From positions 20,043-84,042 of the forward strand of contig JAFGSW010000063.1 of the NCBI GenBank assembly GCA_016934415.1: a stretch of DNA of 64,000 bases, read 5' to 3'. Under the pieces are notes generated by a model that saw only the letters and a program-made list of their open reading frames with translations, was not told where the DNA came from and made no database searches. Numbering within the stretch: position 1 is the first letter of the stretch; each line of letters starts with the position of its first letter. The translations under genes and the position numbers were made by a program. Of the stretch, positions 18,243-49,966 are shown in pieces. Source of the stretch: Spirochaetales bacterium. Its GTDB lineage: Bacteria; Spirochaetota; Spirochaetia; SZUA-6; RPPD01.

Positions 18243-19472
18243 ATGATGCGTCTCCGCTGGCTCGTCTTTTCATTTTTTTACCTCTGCGCGTCCGGCCTCT
18301 GGGCTCAGAACCAATCTTCCGGGGTCTTCGCCCCCTTCGTCTCTCGTCTTGCCGCCGTACCACAGGCCGGACGAATCGTCCTCTCATGGAAAAACTCCGA
18401 GGATGCGAGCGGATACAAACAGGTGTTCCGCTCAGACGTCGAAATCACAGACCGAACGTTCGGGAGCGCGACGATGATCGCCCGGGTGGCTCCCAATGTC
18501 GAATCCCACCTCGATACCCCCCCCTCCGGGCATGATTATTTCTACGCGGTGCTCCTCGAGGACAACCGCGGCGATCTCTACCGCGTCTTCATTCCCTACC
18601 GCAACCAGACCGCAGCCGGTGTCCGGCTCGCGCAATCGGCGGAGAGCGCGGCTGCATCCGTCACCGGCATCACCGCGAGCGTGGCCGGTGAAACCGTGAT
18701 GGTGAGTTTCCTCCCTTCGAATAAAACGCGCGACCTCATTTTTTACCGAAGCACGGCGCCGATCCGCTCCGTCGCCGACCTGACCAAGGCCAGCTACTCG
18801 ATTCTTCTCAGCCCGGGGACGCTTCAGGTAAAGGACGTCCCCCTGCCCGGCATTGATTATTATTATGCGGTGCTGGACGCCGATCTCGTGAATTCCGGCG
18901 CATCAGTCTTTGTGACGGGACAGAACACGACGGCCTCCCCGGTGCAGATCCCGCTCGGCGACCTCTCCGCCAAAAACCGGGCGCCCGTCGAGCGCGTTTT
19001 CCCCCTGCCCGCCCCTCATGTCCTGTATAGCATTGAATCCGGTGAAGAGCTGCTGCCGCCGCTCCCCTTCCTCCTGCCCCAAAAAATGGAACTCGCCGGC
19101 GCGGTCCAGAATCGGATTGATTCACTCATCGGACGCATCCAGCGGCCGCCGAAAGAGATGACCTTTGAGCTCCTGCCGGTCGATGAGGCGTCCAACCTGG
19201 AAGGTGAAGACCTCCTCCTGCAGACGATCGTCAAAGCGTCAAGCGAAGATCCCGGGACCAAGGAAACAGTGGATAAAATCGGGGATTTCCTGCGGACGGC
19301 CCACGGAGACCGCATTGAGGCGCGGGCCCGCTTTTACCTGGGCCAGGCCTATTACCTCCACGGCCAGGTGAGGGAAGCGCTTCTCCAATTTGTCTTGGCC
19401 CAGCGGTATTACTATGTGGAAACTCAGAAATGGGTCGATGCCTGCCTCTCGTCGCTCGAGACGGCGAAATAA
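18243..19472 (+). CDS. Hypothetical secreted protein (beta-rich N-region, TPR-like C-terminus)
   Basis: Signal peptide MMRLRWLVFSFFYLCASGLWAQ. C-terminal ...ARFYLGQAYYLHGQVREALLQFVLAQRYYY is TPR-like. Confidence 0.6.
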   Translation: MMRLRWLVFSFFYLCASGLWAQNQSSGVFAPFVSRLAAVPQAGRIVLSWKNSEDASGYKQVFRSDVEITDRTFGSATMIARVAPNVESHLDTPPSGHDYFYAVLLEDNRGDLYRVFIPYRNQTAAGVRLAQSAESAAASVTGITASVAGETVMVSFLPSNKTRDLIFYRSTAPIRSVADLTKASYSILLSPGTLQVKDVPLPGIDYYYAVLDADLVNSGASVFVTGQNTTASPVQIPLGDLSAKNRAPVERVFPLPAPHVLYSIESGEELLPPLPFLLPQKMELAGAVQNRIDSLIGRIQRPPKEMTFELLPVDEASNLEGEDLLLQTIVKASSEDPGTKETVDKIGDFLRTAHGDRIEARARFYLGQAYYLHGQVREALLQFVLAQRYYYVETQKWVDACLSSLETAK

Positions 19473-19727: not shown

Positions 19728-21719
19728 TCACATTTTCTGAATCGAAAGCTCCAGCGTCATCTCCCAGATCTCGTTCGGCTCCAGGCTGATCCCCCAGGAT
19801 GGGAACAGGCACAGCGCCTGGAATTGCCTCCGGATTTTTCCGTTTTCACGGGCGTGTGAATAGACGCTGTGGTTGAACAGCGAGCAGGGTTTGGCGGACG
19901 TCAACTCGAGCAGGACGTTATTGAGTTTGTCCTCGACGGTTATTTTCCGCACATTGGCGCGCTCGCCCGCGGCGGCGTCTATTTCGCCGGGAGTCTTTTT
20001 CGACGAATCGAAGAGCTTCAGATTTTCCTTGAGCGCCGAGAGTAATGCCAGATTTATCTCGGTGCCGAATTCGACGGCGAATTTCTTTTCGCCCGTGTTG
20101 CGGATCACATAATCGGTCACGACCGTGTTCTTTCTGAACGAGTACCGTTTTTCCAATTCGACAAGCGTTTTTTCCCGTCGGCCGTCGAGGCACCCCCCGT
20201 AGAAGAACGCCATTTGACGTTGTTCGCGCTTCAATTCCTTGAGTTGATATTCGGCCCCCGGGCAGGCGCAGACGTCGGCGATACGATCGCTCAAGGTGGA
20301 GGCCCCGCCGTCTTTCTTGAAATGAAAAAAATGCTCGACGAATATCTTGCGCGGATATCCGTCGAACGAATCGGTTCCGTCGCGGTGATAATACTCCCTG
20401 ATCCGGGACAGTGTATCTCCGTAGTTCCAGCAGACCGGGATGTAATCGAGCTCGAAGATCATGCCGTTCTGGCGGTGGATGTAGACGTTCATCTCATTCG
20501 ATTGGTAAAGGATTTCCGGCTCCCCGTCGAAGTCGAAATCCGCCGTAATAATCGACGACAGGAAAGATCCTTTGACCCGCGTGTATTTTTCCGCCGTGAT
20601 GAAGCTTTTATAGATTTCCTTCCGCAGGGCATTGTCGTAGATGCCCAAATGGCGGCCGTGCCAATATCCGTAATGGCATTGGCCGCGCCACAACTCCTCG
20701 AGCGCGCTTTTTTTCCTCGATTTGTCGCCGCGCATCTGGTGTACCGTCAGGTGGGTATACATCATCTTGGCGTAGAGCAGATTGCTCTCCCGGTATTTGT
20801 TGAAGATTTGCTTGAAATTCGACGCGGCCGGCGCGATCGGCCGGCGTGTTTTTATTCGCCGGTAGGGAGGGCGCAAGGCGGCGCGGGAGACGGCATCGGA
20901 ATAGGTACCGGAAAAATAAATCTTGCGGGTGACGTTCCGCCCCTTCAGATATTCCTGCGGTACGACGGGAATGATGGTGTCCCGATGATCGTTCAGCCGG
21001 GCATGGAACTCTTTGAGCCAATTAATATTTTTGCGTCCCTTGGGGAGCACGAAGCGCTTGGTATAACATTCGCCGTCGATGAGAATCGAAATCACGCGCT
21101 CCCCGTCCTCCGACGCCTGCCGCCGCAGGAAGCGAATCACCTCGCGCGGACTTTTTCGGAAAAGGAGGTCTTTGAGTCTGAGGGTGAGCGGAAATATCGT
21201 AATATTCTTGCCGTGTTCCTCGGTCAAGTGCGGATAAAAGAGGTCGTCGTCGGAGCGCCGAACGGAGAGGAAAGCGCTCTCGTTGAGAAAGGTGTATTCG
21301 ATTCCGCAGCTTTTCAGGGTGTTGGGAAGCGTCGCCTCCCACACCTGTTCCGGCAGCCACAGCCCCCGCGGCCGTTTGCCGAAATGCGAGCGCAGGTAGG
21401 TCGTGCAGAGCTCGATCTGTCCGATTTTATCGAGGAGCGGAACGAGCGGCAGGATGGGGTCGTAAAAACCCCCGCCGATAAGCTCCACCTGTTTTCTCTT
21501 CATCATTTCATCGAGAAGGTTCAAGTATTCGGGATGATTTTTTTCGAGGAATTCAAGGACGATTCCCGAATAATGGAGCACGACGGGCAGCCGTTCAATC
21601 TCGTAGAGCGTGCTTAAGAAATGCTTATAGGTATCCTGATAAACGGCCTCGAAATCGTGGTCGCTGTAACCGAGCGGCGCGTGCCAATGCACCCCGAAAA
21701 TGAGGTGTATCGTTTTCAT
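19728..21719 (-). CDS. Glycoside hydrolase family 57 (alpha-glucan-acting enzyme)
   Basis: N-terminus MKTIHLIFGVHWHAPLGY... with the GH57 HWHxP motif. 663 aa. Confidence 0.85.
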   Translation of the reverse strand: MKTIHLIFGVHWHAPLGYSDHDFEAVYQDTYKHFLSTLYEIERLPVVLHYSGIVLEFLEKNHPEYLNLLDEMMKRKQVELIGGGFYDPILPLVPLLDKIGQIELCTTYLRSHFGKRPRGLWLPEQVWEATLPNTLKSCGIEYTFLNESAFLSVRRSDDDLFYPHLTEEHGKNITIFPLTLRLKDLLFRKSPREVIRFLRRQASEDGERVISILIDGECYTKRFVLPKGRKNINWLKEFHARLNDHRDTIIPVVPQEYLKGRNVTRKIYFSGTYSDAVSRAALRPPYRRIKTRRPIAPAASNFKQIFNKYRESNLLYAKMMYTHLTVHQMRGDKSRKKSALEELWRGQCHYGYWHGRHLGIYDNALRKEIYKSFITAEKYTRVKGSFLSSIITADFDFDGEPEILYQSNEMNVYIHRQNGMIFELDYIPVCWNYGDTLSRIREYYHRDGTDSFDGYPRKIFVEHFFHFKKDGGASTLSDRIADVCACPGAEYQLKELKREQRQMAFFYGGCLDGRREKTLVELEKRYSFRKNTVVTDYVIRNTGEKKFAVEFGTEINLALLSALKENLKLFDSSKKTPGEIDAAAGERANVRKITVEDKLNNVLLELTSAKPCSLFNHSVYSHARENGKIRRQFQALCLFPSWGISLEPNEIWEMTLELSIQKM

Positions 21720-21880
21720 CGGATATTCCCTCCGCGTACCGTATGGCGGTTTTTTACAACGGCCGACACAAAAACCCCCATCTGAACTCGGAGAATGAAT
21801 AATCGCCCGTTTATTTCATTATGCGCGAAACGCCTATTGTACACCCGCCAACTCGGACAACGCAATAGCTTTTTGTAAAA

Positions 21881-21908
21881 GTTGAAAAAAACCCCGGCCG
21901 CGGTGCGT
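21881..21908 (-). terminator. Probable rho-independent terminator after rnfA
   Basis: On the minus strand: GC-rich CACCGCGGCCGGGG followed by TTTTTTT. Confidence 0.45.
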
Positions 21909-21946
21909 CATGAAGCTGAGACGTAGTCATCGATTCCTTTTCCTTA

Positions 21947-22537
21947 TCACCCGAAGATGTGCGAGAGAAGGGCGACGTCGAGCGCGACGAATCCCAGGGA
22001 GATGAGTCCGGCGGTGATGAAGGCGATCGGCGCCCCGCGCAGGGCCCGGGGAACGTTTTCCAGATCGAGTCGCTCGCGGATGCTCGACATAAGCAGCACA
22101 GCGAGAAGGAATCCGAGTCCCGAGGCAAAGCCCGCCAGCGTTCCCTCGGCGGGAGAAAAATCGTTTTTCAGGCTCATGAAGACCGTCCCCAGGACTGCGC
22201 AGTTGGCGCTGACGGCCGGAATGGAAGCGCCCAAGGAAAGGCGAAGCGCGGGCCAGAAGCGGCGCACGGCGCGTTCCGTCGCGAAAAGAAATCCCGTCAC
22301 CATGAGCACGAAACACATGATCCTGAAGCTCGAGAGCACGGGACCGACAAGGAGGTAACGCCCCACGACCTGGGAGACGAGCGTCGAGCAGGTCATGACG
22401 AAGACGACGGCGCACGCCGAACCGATCGCCGAGCCGGTTTTTTTCGGGGGATGCAACATCGGGCACCATCCCAGGCACTGGATGAAAACAATGTTTCCGG
22501 TAAAGGCGAAGGTGATGATGATGCTGAAAACGCTCAT
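21947..22537 (-). CDS. rnfA: Rnf electron-transport complex subunit A
   Basis: 196 aa polytopic protein, MSVFSIIITFAFTGNIVFIQCLGWCP..., collinear with E. coli RnfA. ATGA overlap with rnfE. Confidence 0.9.
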   Translation of the reverse strand: MSVFSIIITFAFTGNIVFIQCLGWCPMLHPPKKTGSAIGSACAVVFVMTCSTLVSQVVGRYLLVGPVLSSFRIMCFVLMVTGFLFATERAVRRFWPALRLSLGASIPAVSANCAVLGTVFMSLKNDFSPAEGTLAGFASGLGFLLAVLLMSSIRERLDLENVPRALRGAPIAFITAGLISLGFVALDVALLSHIFG

Positions 22538-23226
22538 GGCCCAGTCCTCCCCTCCGCCTCGCCTTCGGTCTTCCCTTCCCCTTCATCGTCTGATGTCCTG
22601 CGCGCGGCTTTCCTCCTGTTTCCGACGGCACGAACGACATTGAAAAGTCCCATGAGAAGGCCGACGGTCAAGAAAGCCCCCACCGGTCCCGCGATGACCG
22701 CCGCCGGAGAGTCCGCCAGTCCCGGTAGTGCGATCAGCCCGTATCCTGAGGCAGGGAAAAAAGTGATCGTTCCCGATCCGATGAGTTCCCGGAAGAATGC
22801 GATCAGTCCCAGGGCCAGGGTGAAGCCTCCGCCCATGCCGAGGGCGTCCGCCACCGTCCGTCCCGGCGCGTGTGTGAAGGCGAAGGTCCCGGCGCGACCG
22901 AGAATGAGGCAGTTGACGGCGATGAGCGGCACGTAAATGCCGAGCCGCGAGGAGAGAACGGGCGCGGTGGCCTTGAGAAGCTGGTCGGTCGCGGTCGTGA
23001 GGGCGGTGAGCATGATGAGGACCGCCGGTATACGCAAATTGGCGGGGATGAAATTCCTGAGGAGGGAAACGGACAAGCCCATGCAAAGGAGCGCTCCCGT
23101 AACACACGCGCCCAACACGACGGCATTGACGAATTGAACCGTGACGGCCAGGGCCGGGCACAAGCCGATAAGGACGACGAAGACCGGATTCCGAGTGAAG
23201 AGGCCCCGGGAAAAATCCTGCAACAT
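22534..23226 (-). CDS. rnfE: Rnf complex subunit E
   Basis: Internal start MLQDFSRGLFTRNPVFVVLIGLCPALAVT preceded by GGAGG. The ORF-track N-terminal extension is arginine-rich and probably spurious. Confidence 0.85.
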   Translation of the reverse strand: MLQDFSRGLFTRNPVFVVLIGLCPALAVTVQFVNAVVLGACVTGALLCMGLSVSLLRNFIPANLRIPAVLIMLTALTTATDQLLKATAPVLSSRLGIYVPLIAVNCLILGRAGTFAFTHAPGRTVADALGMGGGFTLALGLIAFFRELIGSGTITFFPASGYGLIALPGLADSPAAVIAGPVGAFLTVGLLMGLFNVVRAVGNRRKAARRTSDDEGEGKTEGEAEGRTGP

Positions 23227-23978
23227 TAGAAACCTCCCATCCGAGCCGCGAAGCGTGAGCCCTCGCGCAAAGCGAGCCCCAACCCCCTGAAAGTCACCGT
23301 CGCTCCGGTGACGGCGTCGGCGCCTGCCCCGGTGAGGCTTTCCCGCGTCACAGGGACTTCCCTCCCCTTTGCGCCGGCAAAGAGACCGAGCAACCGCACG
23401 GCTTTCGCGCGTTCGCGCCACGGCCCGCGGCCGGCTTCTTCGGCCAGCACCGCATTCCTCACGACGCCGTCCCTTCCGAAATACGCCAGCAGCTTCATCC
23501 CTCCTCCGAAACCGCGGACGCTTAATTCGAGCACGAATCCGGTGAGTGAGCCGGAACTTTCCACCGGATAGTAGGCGCGCACCGTCCCTTCGTTCCTGTA
23601 TCCTATCGAAGAAACAAGGAGGGACAAAGCGGTGCGGTCGCTCTCAGGGAGGCCCTGCTTGAGTCCGACGGTATCGTCCGGGAGGATCTCGTAGCAGGCT
23701 GAGATCCTGCGCCGTGCTTCGTCATCGGGACAAGACGCCAGGATGCGCTCGGCGAAGCCGGTGCGGCTCATGGTGAGAGGAAAAGCCGCATATCGCTCGC
23801 CCGGCGCAAGTCCCCCCGCCGCCGCCCTTAAGAGTTCCTTCTCTCCCCGGGCCAGGCGGTCTTCGATCACCGGCCCCGTCGCAAGTCCGACCGTCACGAT
23901 CACGGCCGCAGCGGCCACGGCGACGACGCCCAACCGCCAAAACGGACTGATCAAATTGCGTAAATCGGCTCTGTTCAT
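23226..23978 (-). CDS. rnfG: Rnf complex subunit G (FMN-binding)
   Basis: This is the C-terminal 250 aa of the 661-aa track ORF, starting MNRADLRNLISPFWRLGVVAV (transmembrane anchor). FMN-attachment motif DAVTGATVT. ATGA overlap with the rnfD stop. Confidence 0.8.
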   Translation of the reverse strand: MNRADLRNLISPFWRLGVVAVAAAAVIVTVGLATGPVIEDRLARGEKELLRAAAGGLAPGERYAAFPLTMSRTGFAERILASCPDDEARRRISACYEILPDDTVGLKQGLPESDRTALSLLVSSIGYRNEGTVRAYYPVESSGSLTGFVLELSVRGFGGGMKLLAYFGRDGVVRNAVLAEEAGRGPWRERAKAVRLLGLFAGAKGREVPVTRESLTGAGADAVTGATVTFRGLGLALREGSRFAARMGGF

Positions 23979-25126
23979 GTCGTCTTCTCCCGGGCGATCA
24001 CGGTCCGTTTCGGCCTCAGAAACCGGTCGATGAGAGGGACGAACATGTTCATGACGATGATCGCCACCGACGCCCCTTCCGGCAAAATGCCGGCGGCGCG
24101 GATCAGGAAGGCGATGAGTCCGACGCCGGCACCAAATACTATTTTCCCCGGGCGGGTGAGAGGTCCCGAAACGTAATCGGTCGCAATAAAGAACGCGCAG
24201 AAGACGATTCCTCCCGAAAAAAGGTGGAAGAGAACGTCGCCTTGGAAAAGGCCCGTCGCGAAGGGAACGCCCCCGAACACCCAGGTGAGAAGCGCGAACG
24301 TCCCCAGCAGCGCCGCAGGGATTTCCCAGGAAATGATCTTCCGCGCCAAAAGCACGGCCGCGCCCACCAGCAGCAGAAAAACGGAAATCTCGCCGATAGA
24401 CCCCGCCGTGTTCCCGAAAAAAAGGTCGAAGTACCCCGGCCTCACGTTCACGCCGAAAAGACCGCCGAGCCATTTGCTCAACTGGCCGTCGAAAGCGGTT
24501 ACCGGGTAATGATGGACGGCCATAAGCGCGGCGGGGCCCCCGAGCGAGCGCAAGGCGGACGCCGCCGCCTCCTGAGAAGCGGCGCCCGCGCCGATCGACG
24601 ACACGGTCGTTTTCACCACGCTTAAGGGTGTGGCGCCGGAGAGGGCGTCGAAGGACGGTCCGGCCCCTTCCGCGATCGTGGCCGGCGCGATCCAGGCGCT
24701 CATGGCCGCCGGAAAGGAAAGCAGCGCGAATACCCGACCCGCCATGGCGGGATTCATCCAGTTGGCGCCCAATCCGCCCGAGGCGTGCTTGACGACGGCC
24801 ACGGCGAACACTGAAGCGCAGAGTGGAACGTAGACGGGCGCGGCCGGCGGCAGGCTCATGCCGATCACGAGGCCGGTAAGGAAGGCGGATCCGTCCCCGA
24901 CCGTCACTTTTCCCCTGATTGCGTTCGCCGCGAGCTCCGTGAGAACGGCGCCCGCCAGGGCCGTCGCCACCACGAGGATCGCGCGCGCGCCGAAAACGGC
25001 CAGGCCCCAGGCGAGCGCGGGGACCAGGCACGCGGAGACCGTCCACATGACGGTCCGGATGCCGGCACCTTCGGCGATATACGGGGCGGAGGCGCTCGTG
25101 ATGGACCGTTTTTCGGATTTCATCAT
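23975..25126 (-). CDS. rnfD: Rnf complex subunit D
   Basis: NqrB/RnfD-type polytopic protein. Start at MMKSEKRSIT overlapping the rnfC stop. Confidence 0.85.
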   Translation of the reverse strand: MMKSEKRSITSASAPYIAEGAGIRTVMWTVSACLVPALAWGLAVFGARAILVVATALAGAVLTELAANAIRGKVTVGDGSAFLTGLVIGMSLPPAAPVYVPLCASVFAVAVVKHASGGLGANWMNPAMAGRVFALLSFPAAMSAWIAPATIAEGAGPSFDALSGATPLSVVKTTVSSIGAGAASQEAAASALRSLGGPAALMAVHHYPVTAFDGQLSKWLGGLFGVNVRPGYFDLFFGNTAGSIGEISVFLLLVGAAVLLARKIISWEIPAALLGTFALLTWVFGGVPFATGLFQGDVLFHLFSGGIVFCAFFIATDYVSGPLTRPGKIVFGAGVGLIAFLIRAAGILPEGASVAIIVMNMFVPLIDRFLRPKRTVIAREKTT

Positions 25127-26457
25127 ATCGCCCCGTCCCGAGTCGGCATCCGGCCCCAGCTTCTTCCTTTTCTGAGATAGGCGAGAAGCGGTATCCCCGC
25201 CGGGCAGACATACGCGCAGCAACCGCATTCCTCGCAGTCGTTCAATCCCCCGGCCACCGCTTCTTCCGTCCGGCCGTGTTTGATCAATTTCACGAGGATC
25301 GTCGGTGAAAGGCCCCACGGGCAGGAGCGTACGCACCGTCCGCACCGGATGCAGGCGTCATCGGCGCAGGAAGCAGTTTCACGCCGGGTAAGAGCGATGA
25401 GTCCCGTCGTAAGCTTGGTGAGGGGCGCGTCGAGATCGGTCACGGCGGCGCCCAGAAAAGGGCCGCCCATGACGATCCGGCCCGGCGGCTCCCTGAATCC
25501 CCCGCAATCCTCGAACAGCTCGCCGATCTTGGTCCCGATTCTGGCCTTGACGTTCGACGGCCGGACGACCGCCGAACCCGAAATAGTAATGACGCGTTCG
25601 ATGAGCGGTTTTTTCCAGACGACGGCTTCGTAGACGGCGAAAATTGTGCCGACATTGGAAATGATCGTTTTCGTTCCCGGCGGGATATGATGCGCCGTCC
25701 GATCTTCGCGCAGAACATGCCGAAGCAGGTCTTCTTCTCCCTGCGGAAATTTCGCTTTCACCGTGACCAGGTCAAACGGCAGGGACTTCTCCGCTATTTT
25801 TTCCCGCAGCACGGCAACGGCGTCGATCTTGTTTTCCGCGACGGCGAAAACCACGCCGCGGGCGCCGGTGATTTTCCGGGCGATGCATGAGCCTTCGATG
25901 ATTTCGTCCGGTTTTTCCAGCATGAGACGGTGTTCGCCCGTGAGATACGGCTCGCACTCGATCCCGTTCACGATCAGGCTGTCCGCCGGACGGTCCGTTC
26001 CGAACGCGTATTTTACGTGAACGGGAAAACCCGCCCCCCCGAGTCCCACCACGCCCATTTCGGCCACAAGGGCGTTCAGGGTCGCCGCGTCGACGCCGTC
26101 CCACGGTTGCCGGTTCAGGATCTTTCCGGAACGGTCGAACTCACCCGCGCACTCGACGGTGACGGCCCGGCATCGTCCGCCGTCGGGCAGCGTCATGTCC
26201 CCCACGTCCCGTACCAGCCCGGGGACGGGCGAGTGGATATTGGCCGACCGGAACCCGTCGGCGCGGGCGATGAGCATTCCCTCCCTCACCCGGTCGCCCG
26301 GGGAGACGACGGCGACGGCCGGCGCGCCCGAATGCTGAAGGAGGGGAACGACGGCAACGGCCGGAATATGCGCATTGGCGATCGGGAGATGTGAGGTCAG
26401 TGATTTAAAATCAAGGGGTTCGACGCCGCCCCGGGCGAACGTCAAGGTTCGGCTCAT
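25123..26457 (-). CDS. rnfC: Rnf complex subunit C (NADH-binding, two 4Fe-4S clusters)
   Basis: 444 aa. Two ferredoxin-type motifs, CIRCGRCVRSCP and CEECGCCAYVCP. RnfC N-terminal domain. Confidence 0.9.
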   Translation of the reverse strand: MSRTLTFARGGVEPLDFKSLTSHLPIANAHIPAVAVVPLLQHSGAPAVAVVSPGDRVREGMLIARADGFRSANIHSPVPGLVRDVGDMTLPDGGRCRAVTVECAGEFDRSGKILNRQPWDGVDAATLNALVAEMGVVGLGGAGFPVHVKYAFGTDRPADSLIVNGIECEPYLTGEHRLMLEKPDEIIEGSCIARKITGARGVVFAVAENKIDAVAVLREKIAEKSLPFDLVTVKAKFPQGEEDLLRHVLREDRTAHHIPPGTKTIISNVGTIFAVYEAVVWKKPLIERVITISGSAVVRPSNVKARIGTKIGELFEDCGGFREPPGRIVMGGPFLGAAVTDLDAPLTKLTTGLIALTRRETASCADDACIRCGRCVRSCPWGLSPTILVKLIKHGRTEEAVAGGLNDCEECGCCAYVCPAGIPLLAYLRKGRSWGRMPTRDGAI

Positions 26458-28211
26458 CGTTTTTTCCTCTTGGTCGGACGATTACTTTTTCTCATTCCGT
26501 ACACGAGCCCGGGAAACGCCGTGTACTGAAGCAGCAAGAGTGGAACCAGTACGATACTAAAGATCACGATGATTGTCCAGTCGCCTTCCCTGAACCGATC
26601 TCCCCGAAATTCCCGGGAGAAAGCCATCGACAGGCATTGGCCCTGGGCGAAGAGCATTGTCGCGACCGAAGAGCGACCGGCCCGTTTCTCAAGTCCGCGC
26701 AGCCACTCGTCGTCGAAGGCGAGGACCGTCTTTTCGGAACGTACGACTTCGCCGTCGGACGCATCGGTCCGGTATTCGGAAACGGCGATGTATTCGCCCG
26801 GGGCGGGTATGGCGTATGCCGGATGTTTCTCGTAGGCGAGCCGCTCCTGAAACGCCGCATGACGAACGAAATCCGAAAGATCGGGAAGCGAATCGGCGGA
26901 TTTCGCTTCGCTCAAGCGGCGGATCGAGCTCATGGCGATGGGCGCCCCCGGAGCGACCGGGCTGGGGATGGGGAAGCTCACGGAGCGTGAGGCCGGCAGC
27001 AGGAGGAGCACCGGATACACGAGGCAGAGAATGATGACGACGGCGTGAACCGCCCGGCGATTGGGCTTGTCAGACGTTTCCCGCGGTTCGAAACGTCTCA
27101 GCAGCCCGGCGACCGTGGAAACACGGAACGACTTCGATCGCTTTTTTTTCTTTGCGAACGCGGCGGCCCGCAGCCACCCCCAGTAAACGCCCGCTCCCGC
27201 CGCCTGGCAGAAGAGCGCACACGCGACGGTCGCCGGACGCACCGTCCCGAGGACGGCGCAGCACGCCGCAACGAACATCATTCCGCCGTACAATCCGAGC
27301 CGCACAAGAAGCGGGCGCCTTTCGGCGCGAAGAGATCCCGGCCGGGTTTCATTGTCGCAATATGAAAGGAACTCCCTCAAGAAAAAACACCATGCGGCTG
27401 ATACCAAGAAAAACAAGGCGAAAACCTCTATTTTGCTCCCGGCCAGGGCATGGAGCCAGGGGAGAATGCCGGCGGTCGCCAGCACATGGAACACGGGACG
27501 GAGCACCAGGGTGAACAGCGATATAAAAAATACCGTCCCGATCAGGGCGATGATCGCCATTCTCCCTTCATTGCCCGTTGTGTCGAGAATCCAGTCTTCC
27601 GGACCGGTTCCCGCGATCCGCGGAAGGACAAGCGAGAGGGAGAGTGAATTGCGCGACGCGGCTACATAGAGCACGTCCCACCGCGAGCCGCCCTCGCGGA
27701 AGGTGAAGTACCTCTCGAGCTGCTTCATGTATTCGTCGTACCGCGGATCGAGCGCATCGAAGCGTTGTGAGACCTGCGCCAGGGTCACGGTCGAGAACCC
27801 GGAAAAATCCGTGAAGAGCACCTCGGCCGTCTCCCGGGACACGACCGCCTCGATGCCGGGTTGTTTCTCCATGAAGGCCGTCACTTCGGAGAGCGGCCGT
27901 GAACCGCGGTAGAGAACCGTGTCGTATCCTTTGAAAGCCGGTCGCGAGGAAGCGGGAGCCTCGAACAGGAGGTCGAATCCGACGAGAAGCGCACACACGG
28001 TAAGCGTGATGAGCGGGATGACCCTTCTCCCGGCGCCGGCGCGCGCGGCGGCTGGAGTCTTGATCGCGACCGGCGCCCGGCGCCGGGGAGAGCGCCTCGG
28101 CGCCCGGAGCGGCGGTGAGGCGGCGGTATTCTTTTTCGAGATCGTACCTTTTGTCCGGCGCCCTTTCGTCATCTTTCGACGCGCCGTCCCGCGGCGAGCT
28201 TTTCTTTTCAT
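26454..28211 (-). CDS. Hypothetical polytopic membrane protein with highly basic N- and C-terminal tails; first large gene of the rnf transcription unit
   Basis: 585 aa. N-terminus MKRKARRGTARRKMTKGRRTKGTISKK. Several hydrophobic segments. C-terminus ...KSNRPTKRKKR. No Fe-S cysteine motifs, so it is not RnfB. The stop overlaps the rnfC start. Confidence 0.6.
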   Translation of the reverse strand: MKRKARRGTARRKMTKGRRTKGTISKKNTAASPPLRAPRRSPRRRAPVAIKTPAAARAGAGRRVIPLITLTVCALLVGFDLLFEAPASSRPAFKGYDTVLYRGSRPLSEVTAFMEKQPGIEAVVSRETAEVLFTDFSGFSTVTLAQVSQRFDALDPRYDEYMKQLERYFTFREGGSRWDVLYVAASRNSLSLSLVLPRIAGTGPEDWILDTTGNEGRMAIIALIGTVFFISLFTLVLRPVFHVLATAGILPWLHALAGSKIEVFALFFLVSAAWCFFLREFLSYCDNETRPGSLRAERRPLLVRLGLYGGMMFVAACCAVLGTVRPATVACALFCQAAGAGVYWGWLRAAAFAKKKKRSKSFRVSTVAGLLRRFEPRETSDKPNRRAVHAVVIILCLVYPVLLLLPASRSVSFPIPSPVAPGAPIAMSSIRRLSEAKSADSLPDLSDFVRHAAFQERLAYEKHPAYAIPAPGEYIAVSEYRTDASDGEVVRSEKTVLAFDDEWLRGLEKRAGRSSVATMLFAQGQCLSMAFSREFRGDRFREGDWTIIVIFSIVLVPLLLLQYTAFPGLVYGMRKSNRPTKRKKR

Positions 28212-28224
28212 GTCCCTCTATCGA

Positions 28225-28689
28225 TTACAGCATGCAGAATGCCAAAGCGATGAAAAATCCGAGCACCGCTCCCACCCCCACTTCAGAGAGGCTGTGGCCG
28301 TTGATTTCCTTCACGGGTTTTATGGAAAGACGCTTCTCCTTCTTCAAAACGGCGATGAGTCTGTTCAGGGTGTGCGCCTGGAGCCCGGCGGACCGCCGTA
28401 CGCCGAGGGCGTCGCGGATGACGAGAAGCGCGTAAAAAAAGGTGACGATAAAAAGGGGATCGCCGATGCCCACCCTGAACCCGATTGAGGTGACGAGCGC
28501 CGCCACCACCGCTGAATGGCTGCTCGGCATTCCGCCCGTGGTCCAGAAAATGTACTTGAGTATTTTCAAGGCGCTCCGCGGTTTATTCTTGGTGATTTCG
28601 ATGATCGATTTCATCACCTGAGCGATGAACCAGCTAAACACGGTCGCCAGGAATATCGGACTCTTCAATAACGCATTGATATGATCCAT
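28225..28689 (-). CDS. Divergent PAP2-superfamily membrane protein (YuiD/DUF212-like)
   Basis: Internal start MDHINALLKSPIF...; motifs GGMPSSHSAVVAAL and IRDALGVRR...LN. The 266-aa track ORF is an upstream extension with no good start context. Confidence 0.65.
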   Translation of the reverse strand: MDHINALLKSPIFLATVFSWFIAQVMKSIIEITKNKPRSALKILKYIFWTTGGMPSSHSAVVAALVTSIGFRVGIGDPLFIVTFFYALLVIRDALGVRRSAGLQAHTLNRLIAVLKKEKRLSIKPVKEINGHSLSEVGVGAVLGFFIALAFCML

Positions 28690-28930
28690 ACAACCCATCG
28701 GTGGCGGGCGGCCCCGCCGCGGGAAACGGCGAAGCCGCTTCCGCGTCCGTTGCCTCCGCAGATTATCTTCCCGTTCCGCTGATGCAGTCTCGTGCCAACG
28801 ACGTGCAAGTTTCGCTTTCCTTCGGGAAATTGTCAATACAGCGGACCTCACTCGTGTGCAATCCACTCCCCGCGGACACAGAGGGAGGAGAGGCACTCGG
28901 AGAAGGTATGAATAAAATATCAGAGGTTTA

Positions 28931-28958
28931 TTGACACATTCGCGATTCCCGCTACAAT
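28931..28958 (+). promoter_or_regulatory. Near-consensus sigma70-type promoter for the mlaEFD unit
   Basis: TTGACA (28931-28936), 16-nt spacer, TACAAT (28953-28958). AGGGAA ribosome-binding site and ATG at 28970 downstream. Confidence 0.55.
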
Positions 28959-28969
28959 TTACAGGGAAT

Positions 28970-29758
28970 ATGACGAAAATAGGGGATCGCGCGTCAAAAG
29001 AGTGGTCTATCACGGCCAAATCCATTCTTTCGATCTATAGGAATTTCTTTTTTTGGGTCTTCCGCCGGCCGCTCAACGGGATACAACTCGCCGAACAGTT
29101 CGTACGCACCCTCCTTGAAGGTTTTTTAACGATCGTCATCGGCTCGGTGGTCATGGGCATGTTCATCGCCTGGATCGGCGGTTATTTCGGATCGCTGTAC
29201 GGGGCCGTCAACTACATCGGCGCGGCGGCCACCTTCGCCATTCTCCACGAATTCACGATCATGCTCGTCGGCCTGCTCTACGCCTGCCGCGTCGGCACCG
29301 CTTTCACCGTCGAGATCGGCTCGATGGCCATGAGCGGCCAACTCGACGCCCAGCGGATGATGGCCGTGGAACCGCTCAAGCACATCGTCATCCCGCGCGT
29401 AGTCGCCTCGGTCTTCAGCATCGTCCTTCTCCTCGCCGTCTCCATCGGGATCGGCCTGGTCGCCTCGGCTTTTTTCCTGCAGCTCTGGTTCAATATCACT
29501 TTCGCCACCGTCTTCGACAACGCCTTTATGCTCGTCAAGCCCGGAACCGTCATCCAGGCTTTCGTACGCATAGCGATCATGGGCTTTTTCATTTCCCTGA
29601 ACGCCTGCGCCGTCGGTTTCAATTTTACGGGCGGCGCGATCGAGCTCGGCAAGGCGGCCACTAAGTCCATCGTCATTAATTTCATGTACGTGATGGTGAT
29701 CCAGCTCGTTACGGCGATCCTCGTCACCTACAGCCGCTGGTTTACGGACGTGTTATGA
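28970..29758 (+). CDS. mlaE: MlaE-like ABC transporter permease (phospholipid/lipid trafficking)
   Basis: YrbE/MlaE family polytopic protein. ATG at 28970 chosen because the ORF-track TTG start at 28931 lies inside the -35 box. Confidence 0.8.
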   Translation: MTKIGDRASKEWSITAKSILSIYRNFFFWVFRRPLNGIQLAEQFVRTLLEGFLTIVIGSVVMGMFIAWIGGYFGSLYGAVNYIGAAATFAILHEFTIMLVGLLYACRVGTAFTVEIGSMAMSGQLDAQRMMAVEPLKHIVIPRVVASVFSIVLLLAVSIGIGLVASAFFLQLWFNITFATVFDNAFMLVKPGTVIQAFVRIAIMGFFISLNACAVGFNFTGGAIELGKAATKSIVINFMYVMVIQLVTAILVTYSRWFTDVL

Positions 29759-39354: not shown

Positions 39355-40377
39355 TCAGCAGATGCGCGGCAGCATGTCCGCAACGAGCATGTCGACAATG
39401 CGCGTTCCGCCCGCCTTTGTATTCAAATACACCCGGCTTAAAGGATCGTCGGTGACTGTGCCGATGATGGCCGCGTCCTTGGATGCTGGCCGTGAACCCA
39501 AGTGCGCGAGGATGTCTTCGGCCGTATTTTCCTCACAGACGAGGATGAACTTTCCTTCGTTCGCGAGGTACAACGGATCGTAACCGGTCAATTCGCACAA
39601 TGCCAGCACCTCGTCGCGCACGGGCAGCGCCGATTCGTCGATTTCAATCGAACATGTGGAGGATCGCGCCAACTCAACCAACGTCGTAGCCAATCCGCCG
39701 CGGGTGGGATCGCGCATGAAGCGTACGGCCGGCGGCGGGAACCGTTCGAGGGTTGCGAGAACGACCCCGGACAGGGGCCGGCAATCGCTCTCGATCTCAA
39801 ATGAGACGGGAAAATCGCCCCTGGCCTTCATGATGGCGGCGGCGTGGTCGCCGAGCGTCCCGCTCACGATCACCCGGTCTCCGGGCCGGACGGCGAGAGG
39901 CGAAAGCGCGGCTCTGAATTCGCACGTGCCGATCCCGCTCGTGTTGACGAACAGGCCGTCGGCTTTTCCCCGCGGCACGACCTTGGTGTCCCCCGTGACG
40001 ATCGCCACGCCGGCCTCGTCCGCCGCGATCTTCATCGAGCGGACGATCGCAGCCATATCTTTGAGGGGAAATCCGTCCTCGATGACGAAGGCGGCGCTCA
40101 AGTACCTGGGCCGGGCGCCGGCGACGGCGAGGTCATTGACCGTGCCCGACACGGCGAGCCGTCCGATGTCTCCTCCCGGGAAAAACAGCGGCTGCACCAC
40201 GTACGAATCGGTCGTGAAGGCCAATCCGTATTCGTGCGCGGGCAGAATGGCGCTGTCAAGCAAAGCCTCGAGGAAACGATTGTCGAGCGCCGGCAGAAAC
40301 GTCTTTTCGATGAGATCATGCATGGCCTTCCCGCCGTTGCCGTGGGCGAGGGTGATCGTCTTGCCTTTGGATGTCAT
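39355..40377 (-). CDS. hypE: Hydrogenase maturation protein HypE
   Basis: N-terminus MTSKGKTITLAHGNGGKAMHDLIEK. AIR-synthase-like fold. C-terminus ...PRIC with the conserved terminal cysteine. Confidence 0.9.
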   Translation of the reverse strand: MTSKGKTITLAHGNGGKAMHDLIEKTFLPALDNRFLEALLDSAILPAHEYGLAFTTDSYVVQPLFFPGGDIGRLAVSGTVNDLAVAGARPRYLSAAFVIEDGFPLKDMAAIVRSMKIAADEAGVAIVTGDTKVVPRGKADGLFVNTSGIGTCEFRAALSPLAVRPGDRVIVSGTLGDHAAAIMKARGDFPVSFEIESDCRPLSGVVLATLERFPPPAVRFMRDPTRGGLATTLVELARSSTCSIEIDESALPVRDEVLALCELTGYDPLYLANEGKFILVCEENTAEDILAHLGSRPASKDAAIIGTVTDDPLSRVYLNTKAGGTRIVDMLVADMLPRIC

Positions 40378-43038: not shown

Positions 43039-45363
43039 CTATCCCACGTTTTCCGCGGCCACGACCGCCTGTCCAAGGGCCAACCCTCCGTCATTGCAGG
43101 GCACCCGCTCGTGAACAATCGGTTTCAGGCCGTTATGCTCGATCCTCAGTGCCAGACCTTCGAGCAGGGTCATGTTCATGAAACAACCGCCGCTCAAGAC
43201 GACGTCTTTCAAACCCGTTTTCCGGGCGACGGTTGATACCGTTGAGGCGAGAACGTCCGCCAGACCACGGTGGAATTTCCCCGAGATAGTCGCGGACGAC
43301 GTTCGCTTTCTGGCGTCCATTGCCGCGGACAGAACGACGCCCCGCCAGTCGATGACAATGCCGTCCGATTTTTCTTCGATCGAAAAACGATATCCGTTTT
43401 CATCGCCGGATCCATTTCCCGCAAACGCCTGTTCGAACTCGATCGCCGGCTGGCCCTCGTAGCGGGCTTCGAGGCAGACGCCGGAAATGGCCGACATGGC
43501 GTCGAAGAGTCGGCCGCAACTCGACGTGACCGGCAGCGATAACGATGATTCCAGCTGGGCGGCTGTCACCGCCAGCTTTTGTTCGGGGATACCGGAAAGC
43601 GACGGCGGTAACACGTCCCGCCAGCCGTTTCCGCACGCCTCCCTGAGACAGGCCGCCGCCATGCGCCACGGTTCGCGAACGGCAAGATCCCCGCCCGGCA
43701 TAGCGACGGTTCCCAAATGCGCCCGGCGCTCGAAACGGGCGCGGTCGGCGACGAGTATCTCCCCGCCCCAGACGGTGCCGTCCGTTCCCAGGCCCGTCCC
43801 GTCGAGCGCCACGCCGATGACGGGCCCCCGCAGGCCCCGCTCGGCCATGCAGCTCGCAATATGCGCGTGATGGTGCTGGACCGGGAATTTGAGGGCCGCC
43901 GCCGCCCATTCGAAATCCGGGGGTGGATCGAGCGCGAACTGCGTCGAAAGGTACTGCGGGTGCAGGTCGTGCGCGATGAGCGACGGGGTCACGTCAAGAA
44001 GGGCGAGGAAATGGCGGATCGCATCCAGAAACGCCCGGTAGGTTTCGCGGTCCTTGAGGTCGCCGACGTGCTGACTTAAGAATGCCGAATCGCCGTGGGC
44101 GAGGCAGACGGTGTTTTTCAACTCGGCGCCCACGGCCAGCACCGGGCGCTTGAGCGCAGTCCGCATCACGACCGGGGAGGGCGTGAAGCCCCTCGCCCGC
44201 CTGATCGGGTAATCGCCTCCCCGGAACAGCCGGACGACCGAATCGTCGGCTCTGGTCTGGATGTCCCGGTCACCCTGGAGAAAATAATCGCATATGGGTG
44301 AAAGCCTGTGCAGCGCCTCGTCGTTCCGGCAGGCTATCGGTTCGTCGGAAAAATTGGCGCTGGTCATGACGAGCGGAACGTCGATTCGCGAGAAGAGGAG
44401 GTGCTGGAGCGGCGTGTAGGGGAGCATGAGTCCGAGTGTCGACGATCGGGGGGCGACCGCCTCCGCCAGCCCATGCCCTGGTTTTTTCGGCAGGAGCATG
44501 ATCGGGGCGTCGACGTCGAGAAGGCGCCGTTCCTCGGTTTCCCCGAGCTCGACGAGCCGCCGCGCCGACTCAATGTCCCTCACCATCACCGCCAAAGGCT
44601 TCTCCTCGCGGCGCTTGCGCCAACGAAGGGCGGCGACCGTTTTTTCGTCGTCGGCCCGGCAGGCGATATGAAATCCGCCCAGACCCTTGACCGCGATAAT
44701 GGCGCCGCCGGAAAGCATGGCTGCGGTCCTTTCGATGAGGTCTTTAACCGATGAGGAATCGACGCCGCGGACGATCGTCACGCCGTTGCGGTCGCAGAGA
44801 CTGACATGCGGTCCGCAAACGTGGCAGGCATTGGGCTGGGCGTGGAAGCGCCGGTCGGCCGGGTCGCTGTATTCGCGCTCGCATTCGGGGCACATGGGGA
44901 ACGAAGACATCGTCGTATTGGCCCGGTCGTATGGAATGTCCCGAACGATGGTGAAACGGGGGCCGCAATTGGTGCAGTTGATGTAAGGATAGAAAAACCG
45001 CCTGTCGCGCGGATCAAATAGCTCCCTTCGGCAATCGGGGCAGAGGGCGAGGTCGCGTGAAATCCTGACGATCCGGACGTCGTCCGCGCGGCTCTCCTCG
45101 ATGGTGAACCCGTCAAAGACGGGCGGATTTTCGACCGTGACGCTCTCCACGGATTCCACCCTGCTCTGCGGCGGCGGAGTCTCCCGGACGGCCCGCTCCA
45201 GGGCGGCCACGGCCTCCTCCGTCCCCTGGGCGAGGATCTCGACGCAGCGCGTGGTGTTGGCGACGGTCCCCATGATCCCCAGACCCGCCGCCCGGTTGTA
45301 GACGAAGGGCCTGAAGCCCACTCCCTGAACGACTCCTTTGACGATAATGCGCTTGGTGATCAT
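43039..45363 (-). CDS. hypF: Carbamoyltransferase HypF
   Basis: Start at MITKRIIVKGVVQGVGFRPF (acylphosphatase domain), an ATGA overlap with the hypB stop. Two zinc-finger pairs, YrdC and Kae1-like domains. The 212-aa ORF-track N-terminal extension is arginine-rich and probably spurious. Confidence 0.9.
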   Translation of the reverse strand: MITKRIIVKGVVQGVGFRPFVYNRAAGLGIMGTVANTTRCVEILAQGTEEAVAALERAVRETPPPQSRVESVESVTVENPPVFDGFTIEESRADDVRIVRISRDLALCPDCRRELFDPRDRRFFYPYINCTNCGPRFTIVRDIPYDRANTTMSSFPMCPECEREYSDPADRRFHAQPNACHVCGPHVSLCDRNGVTIVRGVDSSSVKDLIERTAAMLSGGAIIAVKGLGGFHIACRADDEKTVAALRWRKRREEKPLAVMVRDIESARRLVELGETEERRLLDVDAPIMLLPKKPGHGLAEAVAPRSSTLGLMLPYTPLQHLLFSRIDVPLVMTSANFSDEPIACRNDEALHRLSPICDYFLQGDRDIQTRADDSVVRLFRGGDYPIRRARGFTPSPVVMRTALKRPVLAVGAELKNTVCLAHGDSAFLSQHVGDLKDRETYRAFLDAIRHFLALLDVTPSLIAHDLHPQYLSTQFALDPPPDFEWAAAALKFPVQHHHAHIASCMAERGLRGPVIGVALDGTGLGTDGTVWGGEILVADRARFERRAHLGTVAMPGGDLAVREPWRMAAACLREACGNGWRDVLPPSLSGIPEQKLAVTAAQLESSLSLPVTSSCGRLFDAMSAISGVCLEARYEGQPAIEFEQAFAGNGSGDENGYRFSIEEKSDGIVIDWRGVVLSAAMDARKRTSSATISGKFHRGLADVLASTVSTVARKTGLKDVVLSGGCFMNMTLLEGLALRIEHNGLKPIVHERVPCNDGGLALGQAVVAAENVG

Positions 45364-46043
45364 GGCCGCGAATTCACAGTATACGGCATTGACCGCCTCC
45401 GTCCAAGCAGCCATTCTGCGAACCGCTCGGTCCCCTCTCCCGAGACGGCCGAACATTCGAAGACGGGCACCTCGGCGTTGACGGCGCTGATATTGTCCCG
45501 GTAGCGTTCCAGGCTCACCGGCAGGTGCGGGATGAGATCGGTCTTGGCGATCACCGCCGCGATCGCCTCCCGGAAAAGGAGCGGGTACTTGAGCGGCTTG
45601 TCCTCGCCTTCGGTGACGCTCAAGACCGCAATCTTTCCGTTTTCGCCGATGTCGAATTCCGCCGGGCAGACGAGGTTGCCGACATTTTCCACGAACACGC
45701 AGACGCCTTCGCCCGCCTCCGGGAGAGGGAGATCTTCCAGGGCTTGAAAGACCGTCTTCGCTCCCAGGTGGCAGGCGCCGTGGGTGAGGATCTGAACGGC
45801 GGGTATGTGGAGCGCCAGGAGCCGGTCGGCGTCCCGGGTGGTTTCCACGTCCCCCTCGAGCACGAAACAAGACAGCCGTTCGCGGAGAAACGGGATGAGA
45901 CGTTCGAGAAGGGCGGTTTTCCCCGAGCCTGGCGAACCGATGATGTTCCACATCACCGCGCGTTTCTCTGCCAGGAAAGCCCTGGTCCGGGCCGCCCATT
46001 CCTCGTTCGCGCTGAGTACGTTCTTATATACCTTCAGGTTCAT
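45360..46043 (-). CDS. hypB: Hydrogenase nickel-incorporation GTPase HypB
   Basis: P-loop GSPGSGKT. ENVGNLVCP motif. Start chosen at MNLKVYKNVL. Confidence 0.85.
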   Translation of the reverse strand: MNLKVYKNVLSANEEWAARTRAFLAEKRAVMWNIIGSPGSGKTALLERLIPFLRERLSCFVLEGDVETTRDADRLLALHIPAVQILTHGACHLGAKTVFQALEDLPLPEAGEGVCVFVENVGNLVCPAEFDIGENGKIAVLSVTEGEDKPLKYPLLFREAIAAVIAKTDLIPHLPVSLERYRDNISAVNAEVPVFECSAVSGEGTERFAEWLLGRRRSMPYTVNSRP

Positions 46044-48381: not shown

Positions 48382-48392
48382 CGGATCGCTCC

Positions 48393-49127
48393 TTACGATT
48401 GATTGTTGAACAAGAGCAGGCGGCCCGACAGATCGTCGACCGTCTTGCCGTAGATGTCCATGACTTCCTTGGCGGCGTCAACGTTCGGGTTGTCGAGCAG
48501 TCCCCGGCAGCCGAAGCACCAGAACCCGCCCGTCGGGCACTTGGCGCCGCAGCCGGCGCGCGTAATCGGGCCGAGGCAGACTTCGTTGTACTCGTAGCGG
48601 CAGATGTTGCCTTTTTTCTTGCATTCCACGCACACGGGATAATTCGGTATCGAAGGCGTTTTCCCGGCGAGCACGCTCTTCAGGATGGTGCCGAACTCGA
48701 AATGATCGATCGGGCAGCCGTGAATCTTCACTTCCACGGGCACGACCTCGTGGACCGCCTTGACCCGGGCGGTGTCCAGGTGCGGGGCTTCCGCGTCCTT
48801 GCCGTACACCGTGCGGCGCACCTCACCGAAATCGAACTGGTTTTTGAGCTTGTTCACCCCGCCGATGGTCGCGCAGGCGCCGAGGGCGATCATCACTTTG
48901 GCCCTTTTCCGGATGTCCTTGAGGCGCTCCTCGTCCTCTTTTCTCGTGATTGAGCCCTCGATGACGGCAATGTCGTAGCTGTCGGACTGGTCGCTTATGG
49001 CCTCGCGCCATTCGACCGGCTCGATGAGCCCGAGGACGTCAAGGAGGCCTTCCTCCAGATTATAGAGCTGGAGCTGGCAGCCCTCGCAGCAGGCGAAATC
49101 GAATATGGCGACGCGCGGTCTGTCCAT
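48393..49127 (-). CDS. hydD: [NiFe]-hydrogenase small (delta) subunit
   Basis: Internal start MDRPRVAIFDFACCEGCQ (proximal-cluster motif). ATGA overlap with hydG. Confidence 0.85.
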   Translation of the reverse strand: MDRPRVAIFDFACCEGCQLQLYNLEEGLLDVLGLIEPVEWREAISDQSDSYDIAVIEGSITRKEDEERLKDIRKRAKVMIALGACATIGGVNKLKNQFDFGEVRRTVYGKDAEAPHLDTARVKAVHEVVPVEVKIHGCPIDHFEFGTILKSVLAGKTPSIPNYPVCVECKKKGNICRYEYNEVCLGPITRAGCGAKCPTGGFWCFGCRGLLDNPNVDAAKEVMDIYGKTVDDLSGRLLLFNNQS

Positions 49128-49963: not shown

Positions 49964-49966
49964 GTG

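Follow-up and report, generated by a model that had tools for sequence, protein, structure and literature searches.

The Rnf operon carried by a 64,000-nt stretch of DNA from a Spirochaetales bacterium (GenBank assembly GCA_016934415.1, contig JAFGSW010000063.1, positions 20,043–84,042; hereafter the window) comprises rnfC, rnfD, rnfG, rnfE and rnfA and lacks rnfB. Rnf is central to energy conservation in anaerobes, and no entry point for ferredoxin other than RnfB is known. Comparison with related loci makes it probable that an operon of the form DUF212-X-rnfCDGEA(B)-GH57, in which X is a 585-aa polytopic membrane protein of an unnamed family, lost rnfB in one deletion and that RnfCDGEA has remained under selection in a functionally altered form. 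The four species-level lineages that keep rnfCDGEA under selection without rnfB would then constitute a natural experiment on the membrane core of the complex.

The rnf operon and the missing rnfB

Eight consecutive minus-strand genes, assigned with Pfam and NCBIfam models, occupy 19.7–28.7 kb of the window in the order DUF212, X, rnfC, rnfD, rnfG, rnfE, rnfA and GH57. A preliminary description, made from the sequence alone, had given the same order (a YuiD-like PAP2 protein, a 585-aa protein, rnfC-D-G-E-A and GH57). RnfC (25123–26457) matches TIGR01945 with 415.5 bits (cutoff 245.95), compared with 24–47 bits for nqrA models, identifying the subunit as RnfC and not NqrA. RnfD (23975–25126) matches TIGR01946 with 271 bits (cutoff 207) and carries the flavinylation motif DALSGAT. 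RnfE (22534–23226) and RnfA (21947–22537) match PF02508 with 153 and 124 bits (cutoff 23.8), and fall under the cutoffs of the more specific NCBIfam models, with 149–172 bits for the rnfE/RsxE models and 146.8 bits against 229.3 for TIGR01943. RnfG (23226–23978) is divergent: its FMN_bind match has an E value of 3e-3, and its scores lie below cutoff for both TIGR01947 (20 versus 102 bits) and PF04205 (18.5 versus 22 bits). It carries the flavinylation motif DAVTGAT and occupies the slot between rnfD and rnfE that holds rnfG in all related loci. The earlier remark that most genes are linked by ATGA overlaps holds for four junctions (X/rnfC, rnfC/rnfD, rnfD/rnfG and rnfE/rnfA), the rnfG/rnfE junction being TAATG; gaps of 13 nt and 227 nt separate DUF212 from X and rnfA from GH57, respectively. 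An Rfam scan of 21000–29500 gave no match at threshold.

The absence of rnfB from the cluster, also pointed out in the preliminary description, extends to the whole window: a six-frame cysteine-motif scan, tblastn and a search for the N-terminal Fe-S motif found no rnfB in the 64 kb. The six-frame scan matched only RnfC and a Fer4_22 hydrogenase subunit (49967–50983), tblastn with two related RnfB proteins reached a best E value of 0.08 in the window, and the C..CG...C motif that marks the N-terminal Fe-S domain of RnfB was not found there. We considered the Fer4_22 open reading frame (ORF) as a remote RnfB and rejected it because it heads a NiFe hydrogenase cluster. An assembly artefact was likewise rejected, the identical junction being present in independent NCBI, JGI and Logan assemblies. 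A narrow-alignment scan of a genome collection returned three loci, the window's own metagenome-assembled genome (MAG) not among them.

A single loss of rnfB

We compared the neighbourhood across the loci (numbered with the prefix L) that encode the closest X and RnfC proteins. The shared arrangement consists of a divergent MlaD-F-E set, DUF212, X, the rnf genes, GH57, a 410-aa protein and an aminotransferase. rnfB is missing in four lineages: the window, L001 (the same as L012; GCA_964554445.1), L002–L004 and L007. It lies between rnfA and GH57 in L006/L013, L008 (GCA_016929065.1) and L014, and the syntenic operons sampled outside the rnfB-less clade read DUF212-X-rnfCDGEAB-GH57. The short contigs that encode the closest public RnfB proteins (L015–L021, L095, L096 and L097) also carry rnfB; in L017 and L097 only rnfB-GH57 is visible, with little or no upstream sequence, and in L022 only rnfA-rnfB. 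Among 80 loci returned by a metagenome scan with RnfB, rnfA-rnfB-GH57 is the common spirochaete order, and none of the 80 comes from a metagenome that holds rnfB-less relatives.

A tree built by neighbour joining from 2478 residues (DUF212, X, RnfC, RnfD, RnfE, RnfA and GH57 concatenated) unites the four rnfB-less lineages in one clade at 100% bootstrap support, with L006/L013 as its sister and L008 and L014 as outgroups. Taken together, the gene orders and the tree show that a single deletion removed rnfB in this clade's ancestor. Two contigs from a single sequencing run, L097 (SRR13394437_492638) and L009 (SRR13394437_326953), belong to different organisms, with GH57 proteins 60% identical. 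L009 is the rnfB-less window organism and L097 has the usual rnfB-GH57 arrangement, so both states of the operon coexist in one habitat.

A more distant relative, L011 (9001–16420), reads DUF212-X-rnfC-rnfD-rnfE-rnfA-GH57 and has no room for rnfG (130 nt between rnfD and rnfE) or for rnfB (rnfA abuts GH57). Many genes of L011 are split by frameshifts, including those for GH57 and MlaD; the rnf fragments may be true pseudogenes or long-read assembly errors.

A relic of rnfB upstream of GH57

The deletion appears to have been incomplete. The rnfA–GH57 spacers of all four rnfB-less loci share a block of about 45 nt, which in the window lies at 21831–21876 on the minus strand and corresponds to rnfB nt ~644–688 (codons TK.AC.VGC.GCK.C). 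The L001 block is 84% identical over 43 nt to nt 646–688 of the L095 rnfB (E = 1.3e-8; equalled in 0 of 200 shuffles), and its translation, SKRPCTGGGDGCKMC, compares with TKRACKVGCIGCKIC in RnfB. The window block aligns at the same rnfB positions and on its own is not significant (7 of 200 shuffles). These alignments show that an rnfB piece of about 45 nt persists in the spacer.

In the window, the relic coincides with a promoter-like box, TTGCGT-N18-TACAAT, ahead of the gene for GH57, an alpha-glucan enzyme (19728–21719, minus strand; PF03065, PF09094 and PF09095) that comes next downstream at all related loci. The block can likewise be read as TTGCnn-N18-TAnAAT; a promoter scan did not call it. 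The relic may have been retained since it carries this putative GH57 promoter. The preliminary description had placed GH57 after a terminator. GH57 does follow, and the terminator is weak: it consists of a short hairpin and a U7 run with a stability like that of shuffled sequence (z = 0.6), and a terminator scan did not call it.

Another conserved element, CATTCTCCGAGTT...GGGGGTTTTT (21775–21800, minus strand), lies between the relic and the GH57 start codon and recurs in the spacers of L001, L002 and L006; the scan found it terminator-like. In L006 it stands 3′ of rnfB, so it may be a 5′ leader or attenuator of GH57.

Accelerated evolution of the remaining subunits

Following the loss of rnfB, four of the five remaining Rnf subunits evolved faster than in the rnfB-bearing sister lineage. 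In Tajima relative-rate tests that compared every rnfB-less lineage with L006 and used L008 as outgroup, the excess of unique changes is 6.7–7.8-fold for RnfA (p = 1e-11 to 1e-14), the fastest-evolving subunit (window ratio 6.7, p = 8e-12), 3.0–3.8-fold for RnfC (p ≤ 4e-7), 3.1–3.8-fold for RnfE (p ≤ 9e-6) and 2.3–3.1-fold for RnfD (p ≤ 1.5e-4). It is not significant for RnfG (1.1–1.5-fold), DUF212 (0.5–1.2-fold) or GH57 (0.7–1.2-fold), the last serving as the rate control, nor for X (0.9–1.7-fold) except in the window (p = 0.013). With alternative references and outgroups, the window values are 6.2–7.5-fold for RnfA and 2.2–3.8-fold for RnfC, RnfD and RnfE, and rates in the control pair L006 and L008 are near-symmetric. 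By these tests, RnfA, RnfC, RnfE and RnfD are shown to have evolved 2–8 times faster after the loss than in the rnfB-bearing sister, with no such change in DUF212, X and GH57.

Of the alignment columns invariant among rnfB-bearing relatives, 35% are replaced in all four rnfB-less lineages in RnfA, 29% in RnfG, 19% in RnfE and 9% in RnfC and RnfD, compared with 0–1% in DUF212 and GH57. In the Clostridium tetanomorphum complex, the RnfB transmembrane helix joins helices of RnfA, RnfE and RnfG in a four-helix bundle, and RnfB's soluble portion packs against RnfC (PMC9588780). By analogy, the ranking of RnfA, RnfG and RnfE above RnfC and RnfD fits these contacts.

Purifying selection has nevertheless persisted. 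We estimated ratios of non-synonymous to synonymous substitution rates (dN/dS) by the Nei–Gojobori method (NG86); they are approximate, with dS at 0.6–1.0 in the best pair and saturated beyond. Between the window and L001, both without rnfB, dN/dS is 0.21 for RnfC, 0.16 for RnfD, 0.25 for RnfG, 0.29 for RnfE, 0.18 for RnfA, 0.09 for GH57 and 0.04 for DUF212. For the rnfB-bearing pair L006 and L013 the corresponding values are 0.05, 0.09, 0.54, 0.13, 0.02, 0.07 and 0.10. On these estimates, constraint on Rnf has eased about two- to nine-fold yet clearly persists.

The acceleration bears on the simplest explanation for the missing gene, namely that rnfB has been relocated within the genome and still completes an ordinary six-subunit ferredoxin:NAD+ (nicotinamide adenine dinucleotide) pump. 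MAGs are incomplete, our search was confined to the 64-kb window, and split rnf clusters occur in other bacteria, all of which leaves room for a relocated gene. Relocation alone, however, does not account for RnfA, RnfC, RnfE and RnfD evolving 2–8 times faster while the flanking genes are unchanged, nor for their dN/dS at 2–9 times that of the rnfB-bearing sister. Further, five of the seven RnfB proteins closest to that of the sister lineage (63–78% identity) could be placed in the rnfA-rnfB-GH57 loci of other organisms (P0128, P0129, P0130, P0133 and P0134; P0131 and P0132, on short contigs, were left out), one of them sequenced in the run that also yielded the window organism. The Rnf-specific acceleration thus argues against simple relocation, one of two alternatives raised in the preliminary description, and we regard it as unlikely.

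What the remaining subunits keep and lose

Across the four lineages, in which RnfC identity has fallen to about 60%, the five rnf ORFs are intact and keep their overlapping layout. In all four, RnfC keeps both 4Fe-4S motifs (CxxCxxCxxxCP), RnfD and RnfG keep their flavin-accepting Thr/Ser, and RnfA and RnfE keep the four cysteines of the membrane Fe-S site. In the window, RnfE has both of its cysteines of this site (GLCP and VNC), and RnfA has C25 and C113 together with K32, R154 and D158. In Acetobacterium woodii, these last three RnfA residues contact the last RnfB cluster, B8 (PMC11889175). Their retention, like that of the RnfA/E cysteines, speaks for a relocated rnfB.

Erosion is seen in RnfC. 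A loop of its NuoF-like FMN/NAD module, with the pattern YPQGxEKxL...REVPxGxLPxDxG, is conserved in all rnfB-bearing relatives, in C. tetanomorphum and in A. woodii, and largely in Azotobacter vinelandii (alignments to the RnfC chains of the solved structures 7zc6, 8ahx and 9eri). In the window it reads FPQGEEDLLRHVLREDRTAHHIPPGTK, and every rnfB-less lineage has exchanged it for an unrelated sequence of variable length, a degeneration for which relocation of rnfB does not account. The segment presumably lines the pocket for flavin mononucleotide (FMN) and NADH, a role that we take from homology to NuoF in the complex I literature. The window RnfC has intact GLGGAGFP and NGIECEP motifs; the Gly-rich motif, GLGGAxFP, is degraded in L001, L002 and L007.

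This erosion raises the alternative that rnfCDGEA is a non-functional remnant, decaying since rnfB was lost. The acceleration continues within the clade, in which the window and L007 are 53% identical in RnfA and 78% in GH57, the RnfC Gly-rich motif has eroded in three lineages and the NAD-module loop in all four, and RnfG, RnfE and RnfA fall under their NCBIfam cutoffs. Against decay stand the intact, overlapping ORFs in lineages this divergent, dN/dS values of 0.16–0.29, well under 1, and the retention of every Fe-S and flavin ligand. Selection of this strength, together with intact frames in four lineages, disfavours pure decay, and we consider it quite improbable.

The reading that we favour is that RnfCDGEA is still produced and under selection, serving as a membrane redox complex in which the transmembrane chain of flavins and Fe-S centres would be intact. 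The canonical ferredoxin entry would be lost, and the NAD(H) site of RnfC would be under relaxed or changed constraint. With the one gone and the other drifting, the complex is probably not a standard ferredoxin:NAD+ pump. Another partner in the cytoplasm would probably exchange electrons with it at the RnfA/E face, where a small Fe-S or flavodoxin-type protein encoded in trans might dock, or a carrier might bind directly. The fullest form of this proposal, in which RnfCDGEA is a working membrane redox or ion-translocating complex that has abandoned both canonical entry points and acquired a new cytoplasmic electron partner, we advance only tentatively, as a possibility more doubtful than the altered function itself.

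Several points weigh against this reading. All of the genomes are metagenome assemblies and this one was read over 64 kb, so rnfB or a minimal RnfB may be encoded elsewhere. The retained K32, R154 and D158 of RnfA would also fit an RnfB-type partner that is still present. The putative NAD/FMN role of the RnfC loop is taken from homology to NuoF, and the Gly-rich and ECEP motifs of the window RnfC are intact. The approximate nature of the dN/dS values counts here as well.

The membrane protein X at the head of the operon

X (26454–28211, minus strand) matches no Pfam or NCBIfam model. The preliminary description had held that it lacks Fe-S motifs and is not a divergent RnfB, and this is borne out: its nine cysteines form no CxxC motif, and the family coexists with rnfB. 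The N-terminal 62 residues contain 23 lysine or arginine and no aspartate or glutamate residues, and the C-terminal tail is also basic. The long Lys/Arg-rich tail differs in position among relatives, being N-terminal in X of the window clade, C-terminal in L006 (3950–5653) and almost absent in L008 (6415–8004). In the GenBank record of the window X, the protein is 572 aa long and starts 13 codons later.

A word-indexed search found six related proteins, including the protein's own record (JXD23_11405). An exhaustive profile search raised this to 633 cluster representatives at E ≤ 1e-3, 159 of them at E ≤ 1e-30, nearly all matching over their full length of 500–560 aa. None of 60 members matched a Pfam family above noise, and the search thus newly defines a sizeable family that has no Pfam or NCBIfam model. 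An AlphaFold model from a 60-sequence alignment reached a predicted local distance difference test score (pLDDT) of 83.6 and a predicted template modelling score (pTM) of 0.79; AlphaFold2 with six sequences gave a pLDDT of 46 and an unusable model. The predicted topology has eight transmembrane (TM) helices with both termini inside and basic cytoplasmic tails. Two alpha/beta domains, at residues ~85–212 (after TM1) and ~405–541 (after TM7), are predicted to be periplasmic by the positive-inside rule, and together they hold all of the family's invariant residues (D155, R157, D159, P443, H451, Q455, P469 and W503). No cysteine is conserved across the family and there are no Fe-S or flavin motifs. 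PDB fold and sequence searches with X gave no credible relative, and its assignment as a MacB/FtsX/LolCE or RND transporter was rejected for want of a significant match across the membrane and periplasmic domains. On the model and the alignment, X represents an unnamed family of membrane proteins that face the periplasm and show no sign of redox cofactors.

The gene for X is co-located with rnfC in the nine rnf-linked lineages sampled, always with DUF212 upstream, and is probably co-transcribed with rnfC. It precedes rnfC with or without rnfB (rnfB-bearing cases are L006/L013, L008 and L014), and in L005 and L010 a family member stands between genes for a pseudouridine synthase and prfB with no rnf gene close by. 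Conservation beside rnfC, suggested as a check, was thus found in relatives, yet the family also occurs away from rnf. The link that the preliminary description had implied between X and the missing rnfB does not hold, since X accompanies rnfC in rnfB-bearing operons, exists without rnf and did not change rate when rnfB was lost.

These distributions also bear on the idea that X replaces RnfB as the electron-input module. X sits directly upstream of rnfC, the place of rnfB in rnfBCDGEA-type operons (PMC4014512), and its stop codon overlaps the rnfC start. Against this, X has no Fe-S or flavin motifs and no family-wide cysteine, its invariant residues are all predicted to be periplasmic, it coexists with rnfB in L006, L008, L013 and L014, it occurs in L005 and L010 in the absence of rnf, and its rate was unaffected by the loss. 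Because X heads rnfC with or without rnfB and also occurs away from rnf, the comparison shows that X predates the loss and is no substitute for RnfB; a role as the input module is very hard to credit.

The first gene of the cluster, DUF212 (28225–28689, minus strand), encodes a divergent PAP2 (YuiD-like) protein that covers the full length of the PF02681 profile with 134.6 bits (gathering cutoff 26.5; E = 2.8e-39) and is 83–94% identical in close and 55–67% in distant relatives. Most likely X and DUF212 are envelope proteins transcribed together and not redox subunits.

The X genes without rnf are full-length (10001–11593 in L005 and 9001–10518 in L010, on contigs of 5.4 Mb and 1.1 Mb), and neither DUF212 nor Mla or rnf genes lie around them. 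Rnf-linked copies of X also have the pseudouridine synthase gene nearby, as well as prfB in L011; these shared neighbours suggest that the X family gene is the fixed point of the region.

Comparison with known systems

The window operon shares the C-D-G-E-A order with the canonical clostridial rnfCDGEAB (C. tetanomorphum, 7ZC6; A. woodii, 9ERI), its RnfC can be aligned over the whole length with 7zc6_C (E = 2e-95), and both have the two 4Fe-4S motifs of RnfC, the flavinylation sites of RnfD and RnfG and the cysteines of RnfA/E. Its closest relatives still have rnfB as the last rnf gene of the operon. It differs in lacking RnfB, in the degenerate RnfC loop between the YPQG and NV.T motifs, in having RnfA, RnfE and RnfG below the NCBIfam cutoffs, and in the additional DUF212 and X at its head.

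The nearest described case, by analogy, would be the noncanonical Rnf of Treponema pallidum. In its six-gene operon, tp0153–tp0148, RnfC, RnfD and perhaps RnfE are recognizable, without any identified RnfB; the opening gene carries the label 'RnfB?' by position only, and flavodoxin has been proposed as the donor (PMC4436053, PMC7512555). Going by the published description, its gene count and order would fit X-C-D-G-E-A. T. pallidum reportedly has no recognizable flavinylation motifs, whereas the window keeps both. If our reading is correct, the two may be in the same state, and the clade may serve as a free-living comparator for this unexplained system (PMC4436053).

A second parallel concerns the origin of Na+-NQR, for which Reyes-Prieto et al. 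(2014) proposed a loss of rnfB followed by decay of the RnfC cofactor sites (PMC4014512). The hypothetical intermediate, like the window operon, would be rnfCDGEA with a retained membrane core and an RnfC nucleotide site losing constraint. The window cluster differs in having no gene for an NqrF-type reductase, which carries a 2Fe-2S ferredoxin and a flavin adenine dinucleotide (FAD)/NADH domain, in keeping the RnfC Fe-S cysteines that NqrA lost, and in its phylum, the proposed origin being in Chlorobi/Bacteroidetes. The clade would thus be a parallel to the Na+-NQR ancestor and not the ancestor itself, and looks like an independent early stage. If so, it would be an extant analogue of the postulated rnfB-less intermediate (PMC4014512) and a living, independent replay of the rnfB-loss step.

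Partial 'NQR/RNF-like' sets in Actinobacteria and the Candidate Phyla Radiation (CPR) have been read as altered electron routes (Meheust et al. 2021, PMC8238504). In these, RnfD is fused to an NqrF-type NAD-binding domain in a single one-way path; the window has separate C, D, G, E and A subunits. That survey, which covered flavinylated systems broadly, took the presence of RnfB as defining Rnf (PMC8238504), so rnfB-less operons would go uncounted there. A literature search for rnfB-less Rnf operons returned nothing besides the T. pallidum, Na+-NQR and NQR/RNF-like cases.

Other genes in the window

Between GH57 and the aminotransferase gene, on the opposite strand (18243–19472, plus), lies a gene whose 409-aa product has an N-terminus resembling a signal peptide and matches no Pfam family. 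An opposite-strand protein of 408–414 aa is encoded at the equivalent spot in L002, L006, L007, L008 and L097 and, more distantly, in L011.

The hydrogenase to which the Fer4_22 subunit belongs is encoded by a four-gene cluster (47086–50983, minus strand) that resembles cytoplasmic NiFe hydrogenases of the sulfhydrogenase type and comprises, in addition to the Fer4_22 subunit, a FAD/NAD and DHODB Fe-S subunit, an Oxidored_q6 small subunit and a NiFeSe large subunit. Two maturation genes lie nearby on the same strand, encoding HypF (43039–45999) and an AIR-synthase-like protein of the HypE type (39355–40377).

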